A stretch of DNA of 34,945 nt from Patellaria atrata CBS 101060. Taxonomy: Eukaryota. Below, piece after piece: positions 2,808 through 34,945 of the stretch (the first letter of the stretch is position 1; every line of letters begins with the position of its first letter). Under the pieces are notes generated by a model. It worked only from the letters and a program-made list of their open reading frames with translations, did not search any database and was not told where the DNA came from. Position numbers and translations under genes: made by a program. The stretch is from NCBI GenBank assembly GCA_010093705.1, contig MU006089.1, forward strand, positions 3,025,561 to 3,060,505. The letters run 5' to 3'.

Positions 2808-3513
2808 GTTTAGTCGAAAATAACAGTATCTATCCTTCATCCTCAACATTCTTATGGTCTTATTGTATAAGTTCACATTTCACACGTAAGCTAAATTGAA
2901 TATGAGCATTTCCGGCCACTGAGGTCGGGCAACACTCGTATCTGAACGATATTTCTTAGTCTTTCTTTCTATACCTAACAATCCACGAATCAAAAATCGT
3001 GCAACCACAGCAAACAAAGAGAAGTAAGATTTTACTAGCACTCTTGGACCTTGAAAGAGCAAATTCATACAGATAATCGAATACTTATGCGTTGTCATGA
3101 CGGCTTCTTACTTCCACATGGTATCGGTCATTGCTCTCTATTCAGTGTTTCTTGAAACTACTGCATTATTCCATACAAACCATGGTTATGCTCCTCATGG
3201 CATTATACTCCCAAACACCAAACAACGTGAATCTCACGATATTTCTGTGTTCGATTTCAGCGCCGGAGTTGAATTTCTTTATTCTTCTGCAACTAACTTA
3301 GTCCTTGTGCCACCACCAGTCAAAACTAGAATTAGGAGAACAAGACCATAAATCATCCATTTCACAAAGCACCCGCTCAAGATCCTTAGTATATATCTTT
3401 TCTACAATTTCAACATGCTTGCAAGCACAAAGTCTTCATCAGCAGAACATCGATCTCACGTCTTATGCCCTCACATGCTACCTGACCGGAACGAGCACAC
3501 ACCAACAACAACA

Positions 3514-3618
3514 ATGTGGTTATGTTGTATGTGCGGCACAGAAAACGGATGCGACGTTATTTGGTGCTGCGCATGTAGTCACTACACCATCAACTGTGCG
3601 GACTGCTTCTCATATTAA
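3514..3618 (+). CDS. Putative 34-aa cysteine-rich microprotein MWLCCMCGTENGCDVIWCCACSHYTINCADCFSY
   Basis: ATG in a good fungal context (ACAACAATG) with TATATA about 120 nt upstream. Nine Cys in 34 aa, patterned W-x-CC-x-C-x3-N-x6-(C)-C-x-C-x-H-x4-C-x2-C. Confidence 0.6.
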   Translation: MWLCCMCGTENGCDVIWCCACSHYTINCADCFSY

Positions 3619-3797
3619 GCCTTCCGGACAACGTGAGCGCCTAATTCTACACATTTTTCTCTTTCAACCACGCTCAATCTTCGGTTGGAATGGATTATCT
3701 GTATCAAGTGGAATCCAGAGATACGTAAGGTTGGTCAATCTCTAAACCTGATTCCCATTGCAGTACTTTTGACGAATCGTGCTAGACTTTTCAGGGT

Positions 3798-6077
3798 TCA
3801 TATGGCCAGATCTTCAACCCTGACCAATCCACTTCCCATGGCAGCCGCAGCCCATCCGCCGCAGATTGGATTCGGATTCCAACACACTTGGGTGACCGCA
3901 CTCTCAAGCTCGTGGATGGTGGTATAGATTTCACCTTCCTTGCTCCTTGCAGCAGTATTTCCCGACGAGAAGTGTTTCGTCTCTAACTTGAAACCCTCAG
4001 TGATCCGACACATCGGTTGACCGAGCAGCAATTCTCGAGAAAATGAAGGCTGTTGCTGGCCGTTTACCAGAGGATTAGGCAAAGTATCCATCGTTGACCC
4101 GTTCTGTGGTGACCTCCCATTCTCCTGGGCGGAAGGCTCTACGCCGTCATTTTTGACTGTCCAAGCCCCTTTTCCTGGCCTGTATTCATGGGCAAACCAG
4201 ACCAATTGCCAGACGTCCGACTTCAAATCTATCGGCTTCCTCAGTGAGTTGAGAGCGATGACGGTCCCGTCGAGACAAGCTGTGAGGACACCCGGATGTA
4301 GTAAGCTGGTCGCTACGGATGTGGCATTGGAATCCAGTCTACCAGCTCCAAGGGTCGAGAAGAATCTCCGAAGTGGATACATGCGCAACATATAAGTGTC
4401 GTCAGCAGAGATGAACGATTGCGTGATATCTTGCCATGAAAGACATATATTTGCCAACCTATTTCTACCACCGAAGAGGGAGTCAGCAGTAGGCGACCGT
4501 ATGTCCGTAAGGCGAAGGAAGCCGTCCATGCTGCTAGTACAGATGAGGTGGGGTCGAGAAGGATATCCCGATTCGATCTTTAGGATAAAGGTGTCATGCA
4601 AATTCTGGTAAAACCACGGTTTTGGATTGGATGGCCATGAGCGAGAATAGCCGGAGAAGGTCGCTGTTAAGTCCCATACTGCGACACTTCCATTTGCGCA
4701 ACCGGCAGCAATGTGATTATATGAGAGCCAGGTGAGACAGGTAAAGATACTCTCAGGCGCTTGCGATTCAAATGCTGCGCTGGTAATGTGAATATTTTGA
4801 GGAGCGGTATCTGGAGCTTGGTTTCTAGTTGGGAGATCGATATTGAGGATCCGAAGCTTTCCATCACCCCAAACACCCGCAAGGATGCCCAAATGGATGC
4901 TTTCTTCATTTCCGTGGACATTTCTGAGAGTCGGACACCACTGGAATTCCTTAATCGGACCCCAATCTGTGCAAATAACGGCTTCCAGCCTAGGTGAAAC
5001 ACTATCGTCGAAAGACCGCGGTTCACCTTCGATTTCAAGGAGATTGAACGACCAAATTTGAATTGAGGCCGGTGACGGGACTGTTGGTATGAAAGCGCGC
5101 GCTACTTGAGGATCCAATGGTGCGGCATCAGTGAAAATTGCTACTGCTAAATATTGTTTTGAAACATTGTGATTCGGCAACCAATTTATACATTGGGGTT
5201 TCCCGCCGACATTAAATAGCCACCCCGGCTTAGATTTTGGTTTGGATATAGGCGTGGTCTTGTCGGCTTTTTCTGTTTGCGGCCATCCGGATGCTAATGG
5301 AATACTGTGATATATAGCAAGGTTCTGAAATACTGGCTTTCTGGTGGAACCGAAGAGAAAATTTATATGTGGAAAGCGAGGATGTGGGAGATATTGTAGT
5401 GCTTCTGATGGGGATAGTGATCCTTGCTTTTGATTGCTGTATAGAGCACTTCGAAGTCCGGATGTATCTAAACTTAACTCTTTTTCTCTCATTTTCTCCG
5501 TAAAGTAGAAGCTGTATGCTAAACCCCCAGTACCATACTTATCGTGTTTTCGAGCGGGGAGTATAACCTGATTAAACCATTTATCCCTTGCCATGAGAAA
5601 GGGAATAACATCTTCATCCACGCCACCATAGGTGTACAGAATCCTATTGTCCTTACCTTGATGGCGTTTTAACTCACTGATACCACGAACATGATAGTAG
5701 TCGCCTTTTTGAGCCCTATTGATTCTGCGTTTTCCAGCTTTGTGGGTGGACTTTCGACCTTTTTCCGTTAAATATGTGTCTGGTCCTATTATTGAATCAT
5801 TGTCATCGTATTTATCTCCACCTTCATCGTACTCTCCATGCTCTTCCGCGGAAGCATTGTCTCCGGAACCTTCATCGAGCGAGAGTTCGTTCTCCTCTTC
5901 ATTCCCGATATCTTCATTTCCGTTCAAGCTATATTCATCTTCCGATTCTTCCCCTTCTTGCGTTGGAGCATCTTCATCAGAGTCCGAAGATCCGAGCACG
6001 TCTTTCAGTCCTTCGAAAGCATCGATAGAATATCTTTTAGCTGCATGGCGCTGCCTTCCTGATCGCCTAGCAGACAT
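3798..6077 (-). CDS. TFC6: Transcription factor TFIIIC WD40 subunit (Tfc6/Sfc6/tau91-like), 759 aa
   Basis: Uninterrupted ORF with a basic start, an acidic low-complexity N-terminus and WD-like repeats (GILAGVWGDGKLRI, IAAGCANGSVAVWDL, SSMDGFLRLTDIR). The C-terminus VCWNPN..GGWAAAAMGSGLVRVEDL is as I recall for fungal Tfc6. Confidence 0.8.
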   Translation of the reverse strand: MSARRSGRQRHAAKRYSIDAFEGLKDVLGSSDSDEDAPTQEGEESEDEYSLNGNEDIGNEEENELSLDEGSGDNASAEEHGEYDEGGDKYDDNDSIIGPDTYLTEKGRKSTHKAGKRRINRAQKGDYYHVRGISELKRHQGKDNRILYTYGGVDEDVIPFLMARDKWFNQVILPARKHDKYGTGGLAYSFYFTEKMREKELSLDTSGLRSALYSNQKQGSLSPSEALQYLPHPRFPHINFLFGSTRKPVFQNLAIYHSIPLASGWPQTEKADKTTPISKPKSKPGWLFNVGGKPQCINWLPNHNVSKQYLAVAIFTDAAPLDPQVARAFIPTVPSPASIQIWSFNLLEIEGEPRSFDDSVSPRLEAVICTDWGPIKEFQWCPTLRNVHGNEESIHLGILAGVWGDGKLRILNIDLPTRNQAPDTAPQNIHITSAAFESQAPESIFTCLTWLSYNHIAAGCANGSVAVWDLTATFSGYSRSWPSNPKPWFYQNLHDTFILKIESGYPSRPHLICTSSMDGFLRLTDIRSPTADSLFGGRNRLANICLSWQDITQSFISADDTYMLRMYPLRRFFSTLGAGRLDSNATSVATSLLHPGVLTACLDGTVIALNSLRKPIDLKSDVWQLVWFAHEYRPGKGAWTVKNDGVEPSAQENGRSPQNGSTMDTLPNPLVNGQQQPSFSRELLLGQPMCRITEGFKLETKHFSSGNTAARSKEGEIYTTIHELESAVTQVCWNPNPICGGWAAAAMGSGLVRVEDLAI

Positions 6078-11577: not shown

Positions 11578-12178
11578 ATGCTCGGTTCCGCCAAGACAGC
11601 GCTCATTGCGCTTGCTGCCCTGAGGTAGGAGGGTCACTATTCTCCATATGCTCTTCAAGCTCAAACTAACCCCTAACAGCGCTTTCACCTCAGCACGCCC
11701 AGTTGAAGTAGAGGATGCCGTCACCTTACCTCCTATCATTCCAACTATCATTATTCCAACACTTTTGCCGCCAAAGCCTACTGTCACTAAGAGCTCTACC
11801 AAGATGACAATGAGCACAAAGTCGACCAAGATGACATCCAAAATGACAACCAAGACGATGAGCACCAAGACTCCTAAGCCAACATTCACTTTGATCACGA
11901 AGACCAAGACCACCAAGACCCCCAAGCCGACTATGACGATGCCGACTATGACCAAACCGACTATGACCAAGCCGACTATGACCAAGCCGACTATGACCAA
12001 GCCGACTATGACCAAGCCGACCATGACCAAGCCGACTACCACGAAGACTAAGCCTACTCTCTCCTTCCCGACTATCTCTCTCCCCACCATGCCTTTCCCG
12101 ACTGGGTTTCCTCCGAAGCCGACTGTCACCAAGCCGACCTGGAAGCCAACTGTCAAGCCGACCCCTTATAGGATCTAA
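11578..12178 (+). CDS. Secreted Thr/Pro/Lys/Met-rich repeat protein, 181 aa; exons 11578-11624, 11680-12178
   Basis: Removing intron 11625-11679 (GTAGGA..CTAAC..CAG) creates the signal peptide MLGSAKTALIALAALSAFTSA in frame with the 11648-12178 ORF. KPTMT repeats follow. Confidence 0.85.
11924..12043 (+). repeat. Coding minisatellite, 8 x 15 bp (consensus AAGCCGACTATGACC = KPTMT)
   Basis: Read directly from the sequence; the central units are identical or differ at synonymous sites. Confidence 0.95.
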
Positions 12179-28555: not shown

Positions 28556-28645
28556 CGACCGAGAAGGGGCTCGAACCCTCAACCTTCAGTGAACAACAAT
28601 TTTGGAAAACCGAAAACTGACGCGCTACCATTGCGCCACCCGGCC
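28556..28645 (-). tRNA. tRNA-Arg(UCG) with an 18-nt intron
   Basis: Minus strand folds as GGCCGGG TG GCGC AATGGTA GCGC G TCAGT TT TCG G [ttttccaaaattgttgtt] C ACTGA AGGTT GAGGG TTCGAGC CCCTT CTCGGTC G. All four stems pair, the intron follows position 37, and T-runs lie downstream. Confidence 0.92.
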
Positions 28646-34209: not shown

Positions 34210-34845
34210 TACTCTCAGCTATGCAAGTATCTGTTGAAACGGGAGAGCGAAAGAGAGCATTTAGTTGAACTTGGGGTTTTTTCTGGGGGATTTTAAGAAT
34301 AAGGTAGTGGAGCGGGCTGTCTGTCAGAAATTCTGTTATTCTGGGGCTGACAGATTGGTTTGCAGCAGACGTGGTGGTTTAACAAGGGCCTTTTTGGTGT
34401 CGGCGTCATAACGGGTGTGCCGGCTTGGGGTGATGGTTATCGGGAAGGGGGTTAGAGGGGTGGACGGGAGGTGGGTGCTTGGGTTGCTGTGCGGTTTTCG
34501 CGCGGCCCACTATGCTCATTCTCGGTTTAGGTCTCCTCGTTGCGCTTGGGCGATTTGGGGAGGTCATCGTGAATTTTTCGTGGTCTGGAGCGATCGGCAG
34601 TTCGTGGGGGAAAAGGGGATCGAAGTCACGGGGTTGGCGGCGAAAAAGATGGAGATAGGGGGAGAAGGAAAATATCGGACGACGATGGTTGGATTGGCGG
34701 TAAGAAAGACGGGTTTGTAAAGGTGACTTTGGGATGGAGAAATTCGGAGGTAGAGGAGCAAGTCCACGATACATAAAAGAATTTGGATACTTGTATGGAT
34801 TCTTCCGATTTCGCATTTCAGCCTGGAGAGTCTCATTATTTCATT

Positions 34846-34945
34846 TCATCCTTCACCACTTCATCTCATCCTTCACCACTTCATCTCATCCTTCACCACT
34901 TCATCTCATCCTTCACCACTTCATCTCATCCTTCACCACTTCATC
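34846..34945 (+). repeat. Perfect tandem repeat of the 20-bp unit TCATCCTTCACCACTTCATC, 5 copies, truncated by the window end
   Basis: Read directly from the sequence; the units are identical and have no spacers. Confidence 0.97.

Follow-up and report, generated by a model that had tools for sequence, protein, structure and literature searches.

The locus and its genomic setting

The window analysed in this study, that is, the whole stretch of 34,945 bases, carries on its + strand a short open reading frame at 3514–3618, which begins with ATG 3514, runs through 34 codons and ends with TAA at 3616–3618. Direct translation yields the 34-residue product MWLCCMCGTENGCDVIWCCACSHYTINCADCFSY followed by the stop, reproducing exactly the MWLCCMCGTENGCDVIWCCACSHYTINCADCFSY* of an earlier note on this DNA. 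The frame lies in a 990-bp gap flanked by two 3' ends, that of a + strand neighbour ending at 2807 and that of a convergent 759-aa gene on the - strand (3798–6077, with its 3' end at 3798), and a gap of this kind leaves space for a short gene driven by a promoter of its own. The two neighbours had previously been named GAL1 and TFC6. Their 3' ends lie as described, and the first is a galactokinase by its Pfam matches (GHMP_kinases_N, GHMP_kinases_C and GalKase_gal_bdg), but the name TFC6 could not be confirmed, the sole Pfam match of the 759-aa protein being a sub-threshold WD40 (E 2.2e-4, 22.1 bits against a cut-off of 27 bits).

Upstream of the frame, TATATAT at 3390–3396 (+) is a candidate TATA element, located 25 nt 5' of an in-frame ATG at 3415 and 124 nt 5' of ATG 3514. 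Both this element and the C/A-rich leader (...caacaacaacaATG) had been remarked upon before and can be read in the sequence. The region was located in only two sequencing runs, with no RNA run among them; both contain it as DNA contigs that follow the window collinearly through the gene models and are free of joints. It was also observed that a 147-codon stop-free frame lacking any ATG (3302–3745, +) overlaps the Cys-rich ORF in another + frame; it is probably a chance occurrence, because the codon evidence given below backs the Cys frame.

Elsewhere in the window, a tRNA-Glu (anticodon TTC) was called at 28556–28645 (-) with a length of 90 nt. Most tRNAs are shorter, and an intron is possible. 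Tandem repeats are found at 11922–12038 (15 bp x 7.8 copies, 92% matches) and at 34840–34945 (20 bp x 5.3 copies, 98% matches), the latter reaching the window end, and the segment 13001–14000 is unlike the remainder of the window in its local GC skew (+0.343, at a GC of 0.508).

A sparse family with a conserved core

A phmmer search with the 34-aa peptide against 1,835,955,588 protein representatives returned ten proteins at E<=0.001, eight of which (P0003, P0004, P0005 and P0007–P0011) were kept as true relatives. These align with the query over residues 2–34 at 55–64% identity (E 9.6e-7 to 1.6e-4) and fall into eight clusters of one member each, indicating a sparse family. They derive from JGI, ENA and Logan, with none from NCBI or UniRef, and only two carry a name given by their source, in both cases 'hypothetical protein'. 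P0012, a repeat protein, was dropped, as was P0006, a 403-aa bacterial protein in which an N-terminal TIR / ThsB-like domain is followed by five generic zinc-ribbon repeats; the match of P0006 is limited to the first 22 query residues and reflects a generic zinc ribbon in common, not family membership. A scan of metagenome contigs with the domain alignment added seven loci representing four distinct sequences (L001–3, L004, L005–6 and L007; tblastn E 1e-13 to 3e-6), so that the family set used below comprises 13 sequences, namely the window peptide, the eight protein relatives and the four metagenome sequences.

Further searches left this set unchanged. A profile search (A3) among proteins of 18–174 aa gave six matches, all of them prior members, and a word-indexed protein search with the 67-aa form of the ORF gave no match at either 36–118 aa or 119–2000 aa. 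The best score in a protein atlas was 0.82, with no family attached; the nearest named cluster was DUF1610/HVO_2753_ZBP, at a score of 0.77 that does not amount to evidence of kinship. The motif and its fragments retrieved no paper on the family in the open-access literature, and broader searches there on microproteins and zinc fingers brought up analogies only. A collection of prokaryote genomes covering 185,579 species yielded one pattern match and no relative. Among the ORFs neighbouring the related members, domains of eukaryotic type were recognised (UQ_con, Pkinase, PIG-Y and CVNH), and on the basis of these neighbours and of the absence from the prokaryote collection the family is taken to be eukaryotic and probably fungal. 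In the L001–3 / L005–6 lineage the family member adjoins the PIG-Y-domain ORF and lies about 2.3 kb from a gene fragment of the Cation_efflux type (a CDF-type metal transporter), an arrangement noted at L003:1–654 (-) and L003:1441–2382 (+) and likewise in L005; the fragment is a possible link with zinc that is confined to one lineage. Synteny was not detected when the galactokinase, 759-aa and 540-aa proteins of the window were compared by tblastn with the seven related loci and their 3-kb flanks, and in a blastn comparison of the intergenic region with the same loci the core alone matched (69% over 100 nt).

Thirteen columns are invariant across the 13 sequences (W2, C4, C5, C7, N11, C18, C21, H23, T25, C28, C31, F32 and Y34), and Y24 is nearly so. 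The window peptide carries all 13 of these residues at fixed spacing, and the signature of the family can be written as W-x-C-C-x-C-x3-N-x6-C-x2-C-x-H-[YF]-T-x2-C-x2-C-F-x-Y. Conservation is confined to this core, the flanks being unalignable in a full-length alignment of nine proteins. In the window the core of 33 residues, from W to Y, occupies 3517–3615 (+), as delimited by the 13-sequence alignment, the codon table and the comparison of dN with dS. The earlier note had stressed nine cysteines and an internal echo (WLCCMC/WCCAC). Neither point was borne out, as C13 and C19 vary across the 13 members; the conserved set is seven Cys and one His, and the echo is coincidental.

Among five DNA sequences, both synonymous codons are in use for every invariant residue except Trp (12 of 13), which shows that selection acts on the protein. 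Although rough, given the 33 codons available, the substitution figures show pS of 0.71–1.5, saturated or nearly so, against pN of 0.19–0.40 in nine of the ten DNA pairs, pS of 0.12 and pN of 0.04 in the near-identical tenth pair (L001/L005), and finite dN/dS values in two pairs only (0.21 and 0.30). These comparisons of sequence show that purifying selection maintains the protein sequence of the core, and 3514–3618 very probably belongs to a real conserved coding gene. The suggestion that an overlooked family is represented here therefore stands, since the coding sequence is conserved and 12 other distinct members were found.

The contrary proposition, that the frame arose by chance or is a decaying remnant without present expression, could draw on its location between two 3' ends and on the lack of any recorded protein of 36–2000 aa from the locus. 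It is nevertheless very improbable. When modelled on the six-frame residue frequencies of the window itself, RanBP2-pattern matches are expected at 8.7e-5 per window and the full Cys/His pattern at 9e-11, and chance would give such a frame about 1e-10 times or less per window. The RanBP2 core pattern occurs a single time across the 34,945 bases, and pattern matches numbered zero in 100 shuffles; stop-free 34-aa stretches with at least nine Cys averaged 0.02 in the shuffles against one in the real window. In addition, the frame is open and has kept every one of the 13 residues invariant in the family, and its stop directly follows Y34, as in four other members. A chance ORF was rejected on the strength of the expectation for the full pattern and of the shuffles.

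Start codon and length of the product

The reading frame is open from 3352, upstream of 3514, a feature missed in the earlier note, and includes an in-frame extension at 3415–3513 (+), either a leader or a disordered N-terminal extension, in which ATG 3415 and ATG 3475 would give products of 67 and 47 aa, respectively. A mini-ORF of six codons (ATG...TGA), out of frame with the core, lies in the putative leader at 3465–3485 (+) and has a weak context with C at -3. The base at -3 is A for ATG 3514 and ATG 3415, and C for ATG 3475. Translation from ATG 3514, giving the minimal coding sequence of 34 aa, is favoured by its A at -3, by the C/A-rich leader and by the weak contexts of the ATGs at 3465 and 3475, and we regard it as having close to, though not quite, an even chance of being the true start.

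The architecture of the other members bears on this question. Seven of the 13 have an M one or two residues ahead of W, and five have a stop directly after Y34; the window ORF alone combines the two. C-terminal tails of 27–89 residues are present in each of the other six members that have M next to W, and the four others that stop after Y34 (P0005, P0008, L004 and L007) are all N-terminally extended and lack a Met in the 15 residues around W. A bare 34-aa product would thus have no counterpart among the members, a point in favour of the 67-aa reading. At the family level the N-terminal parts either start one or two residues before W or consist of extensions without conservation.

An N-terminally extended product (67 aa if begun at ATG 3415, 47 aa if begun at ATG 3475) would consist of a disordered leader with the zinc module at its C-terminus, and deserves serious consideration even if we would lean somewhat against it. 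It is consistent with the frame being open from 3352 with both in-frame ATGs, with the A at -3 of ATG 3415 and with the extensions of all four other members that stop after Y34. P0005 (66 aa) and L004 are laid out like the 67-aa form, and their extension looks translated because it opens with a conserved MDPT in both and preserves the frame. Against such a product, TATATAT lies merely 25 nt ahead of ATG 3415, and if it is a promoter element transcripts would begin at or after that ATG; the C at -3 of ATG 3475 compares poorly with the A at -3 and the C/A-rich leader of ATG 3514; and the upstream 33 residues are without conservation in any member. A Met adjacent to W also agrees with L005 and L006, in which an in-frame stop lies 13 codons 5' of M-T-W with no other ATG, so that translation must start two codons ahead of W, and the protein calls P0004 and P0010 begin at an M two residues ahead of W. 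L001 and L005 are 94% identical. The upstream ATG of L001 is GTG in L005, and the frame ahead of the core is displaced between them by a 1-bp indel, so that in this lineage the upstream stretch is leader and not coding. Just 5' of the ATG of L005, at 2985–3000, there is a ctaac...tatag resembling a fungal branch point and 3' splice site, which is probably fortuitous as the 94%-identical L001 lacks the AG.

The core might otherwise be the final exon of a longer gene with introns, its upstream exons lying in 2808–3513. About 700 bp of unassigned sequence lie upstream, CTGAC...GAG at about 3481–3494 can be read as branch point and acceptor, and several family members have long N-terminal extensions. 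GAG is, however, a poor splice acceptor, the sole sizeable upstream ORF (3097–3351, 84 aa) has no Pfam match, related genes need no upstream exon, as L005 and L006 must begin translation beside W, and family conservation is nil upstream of the core. A spliced gene of this kind appears improbable.

Putative zinc sites and relation to known zinc proteins

The seven Cys and one His within the core (3517–3615) are putative zinc ligands. With eight such residues invariant among 33 positions, there are enough for two tetrahedral Zn sites, and we consider two structural Zn sites to be somewhat more probable than not on the pattern of conservation. The residues that had been put forward for a second metal site (C5, H23, C28 and C31) proved invariant in all 13 members. 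The claimed RanBP2-type pattern was likewise upheld: the core consensus W-X-C-X(2,4)-C-X(3)-N-X(6)-C-X(2)-C, as stated in a passage of PMC7154859, was matched as a regular expression by 13 of the 13. Positions 1–22 of the family profile align without gaps to the NZF fingers of TAB2 and RNF31 in the PDB (E 0.015–0.036), a match below significance which is suggestive of an affinity with these fingers.

The product would then be a module whose fold encloses two tetrahedral Zn(II) ions. In the likeliest arrangement, C4, C7, C18 and C21 would form a zinc ribbon of the RanBP2/NZF kind, buttressed by a site composed of C5, H23, C28 and C31, and the adjacent ligands C4/C5 and C21-x-H23 would couple the two sites. 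W2, N11, T25, F32 and Y34, together with the near-invariant Y24, may provide a surface for a protein or nucleic-acid partner, and the variable N- or C-terminal extensions would be disordered tails. The 34-aa product has no signal peptide, suggesting action inside the cell, and this, taken with the invariant aromatic and polar non-ligand residues and the unconserved tails, would fit an intracellular structural zinc module with a binding surface. A role as a binding adaptor is a tentative proposal, to which we give somewhat less than even odds. The AlphaFold2 models, computed without metal, are of low confidence (mean pLDDT 53.0 with nine sequences and 58.9 with 13 sequences) and hint at a tentative pattern of three strands at 15–18, 23–26 and 30–32. 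Foldseek with the low-confidence model gave no match in the PDB at E<=10, and a wide VIA-align search with the AlphaFold2 model gave two chains at Z 2.0–2.3, which were taken as noise.

The earlier note had offered a metallothionein-like gene as an alternative, in which case the product would buffer or store metal (Zn, Cu or Cd). Metallothioneins are Cys-rich, have few or no aromatic residues, carry their cysteines in C-x-C / C-C clusters and show no fixed non-ligand positions. The Cys content of the window peptide (9 of 34 residues) accords with such a role, as do the very small size without a signal peptide and the Cation_efflux gene fragment about 2.3 kb off in one related lineage. On the other side, six of the 34 residues are aromatic, with W2, F32 and Y34 invariant; two of the nine Cys are unconserved, N11 and T25 are invariant non-ligands, and the cation-efflux neighbour is restricted to the one lineage. 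Fixed spacings and fixed non-ligand residues are typical of a folded finger and count against a metallothionein, which was rejected as highly improbable, and the product is better viewed as a putative structural zinc module than as a metal store.

A different two-zinc arrangement, the cross-brace of ZZ and B-box domains, would have the first and third CxxC pairs share one Zn while the second pair, H23 and either C4 or C5 hold the other. ZZ_ADA2 is the most frequent sub-threshold Pfam match in the family (7 of 13, best E 0.0031), positions 1–31 of the 48 in its profile being matched in homologues; the ANCHR-like B-box was matched by 5 of 13 (best E 7.4e-4), compared with 3 of 13 for Zn_ribbon_RanBP; and in its spacing, CxxC-x10-CxxC-x6-CxxC-F, the family resembles ZZ domains. 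None of these matches attains the gathering score of 27–27.5 bits, however, the ZZ_ADA2 bit scores that were listed being 11.4–15.8 against a cut-off of 27.5, and the profile search of the PDB at E<=10 recovered NZF, RanBP2-type, Rpb12 and eL40 ribbons and zero ZZ. The fourth ligand pair of ZZ domains consists of two His C-terminal to the third CxxC. This terminal His pair is missing here, as five of the 13 proteins end at Y34, three residues past C31, and the tails of the others are unconserved. We therefore consider the cross-brace unlikely, though it is the principal structural alternative to the ribbon with a second site.

No named family accommodates the product. The 34-aa and 67-aa peptides of the window matched zero Pfam families at E<=10, NCBIfam gave nothing beyond stray sub-threshold matches, and the curated threshold of no Pfam family was reached by any of the 13 members. 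From its sequence relationships, the locus is an unannotated gene of an unnamed small family of predicted zinc fingers that gene callers have missed. The reading as a whole, a missed gene with its conserved core at 3514–3618 and a family built on an unnamed, putatively two-zinc module, is in our judgement likely. It is more speculative, and we would put it forward only as one possibility, that the product may be the minimal 34-residue form of an unrecognised eukaryotic domain in which a RanBP2-like ribbon and a Cys3His site are fused via adjacent ligands.

The locus adds a missed gene to the Patellaria atrata CBS 101060 genome and a compact predicted zinc-binding module that lies outside every Pfam and NCBIfam model. 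If the product is made, it would be a concrete case of a 'hidden' fungal microproteome, and the 34-residue form, if true, would rank with the smallest autonomous proteins known to hold two zinc ions. That form would further point to a class of fungal micro-genes systematically overlooked by annotation pipelines, whose products may act as free-standing binding modules or as competitors of larger zinc-finger proteins. The 13-residue signature can be used to find further members in eukaryotic genomes, and the structural claim is cheaply testable, because a unit of 33 residues with two predicted metal sites can be synthesised as a peptide, titrated with metal and studied by NMR.

Several known systems resemble the product in part. 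Two papers concern archaeal zinc-finger micro-proteins of <70 aa, which are routinely missed or uncharacterised (PMC11241148, PMC10716476). The C(P)XCG proteins of Haloferax volcanii (HVO_2753 and HVO_0758; PF07754) are, like the ORF product, stand-alone proteins of <70 aa built mostly of CxxC knuckles, but they belong to another domain of life and show no detectable sequence relation, and the ligand set of seven Cys and one His is that of the present family, which has no C(P)XCG. Rpb12 (RPABC4) and eL40 are likewise very small eukaryotic zinc-ribbon proteins, which the family profile matched over positions 3–25 at or near the head of the PDB results (E 0.014 and 0.22, respectively; not significant, with insertions needed). 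They are, however, single-zinc C4 ribbons, and their conserved tails are absent from the window protein. ZZ and B-box domains (PF25299 ZZ_ADA2 and PF22586 ANCHR-like_BBOX) hold two zinc in about 35–45 residues, as is predicted for the family, and share with it three CxxC knuckles of similar spacing and an aromatic residue after the last Cys; in contrast to ZZ, the fourth ligand pair is missing and C5 and H23 would substitute for it.

The closest likeness is to the RanBP2/NZF fingers (PF00641; TAB2, RNF31/HOIP, Nup153 and ZRANB2), which have in common with the family the core W-X-C-X2-C-X3-N-X6-C-X2-C and a size of about 30 residues. Even so, none of the 13 members reaches the PF00641 gathering threshold (27 bits), and matches at E<=10 are confined to three members, the best having an E of 0.0095. 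The ubiquitin-binding subclass of NZF fingers has a T-F dipeptide directly after the second Cys. This dipeptide is absent from all 13 members, in which C7 is followed by GTE, DRQ, GAD, STQ and similar residues, and an NZF-type ubiquitin binder was rejected on this account. The flanks differ as well. In the 30-residue RanBP2 consensus, R/K-X-G-D stands ahead of W and X(3)-R/K past the last Cys, whereas in the family W is preceded by M, K, G, P, H or T, and the position four residues past the last Cys of the ribbon is taken by the invariant T25 in place of R/K. The family possesses in addition the invariant putative ligands C5, H23, C28 and C31 and a fixed C-terminal tail, H-[YF]-T-x2-C-x2-C-F-x-Y. 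Finally, RanBP2 fingers occur as repeats inside large proteins, whereas the module described here is the sole conserved part of a very small one.
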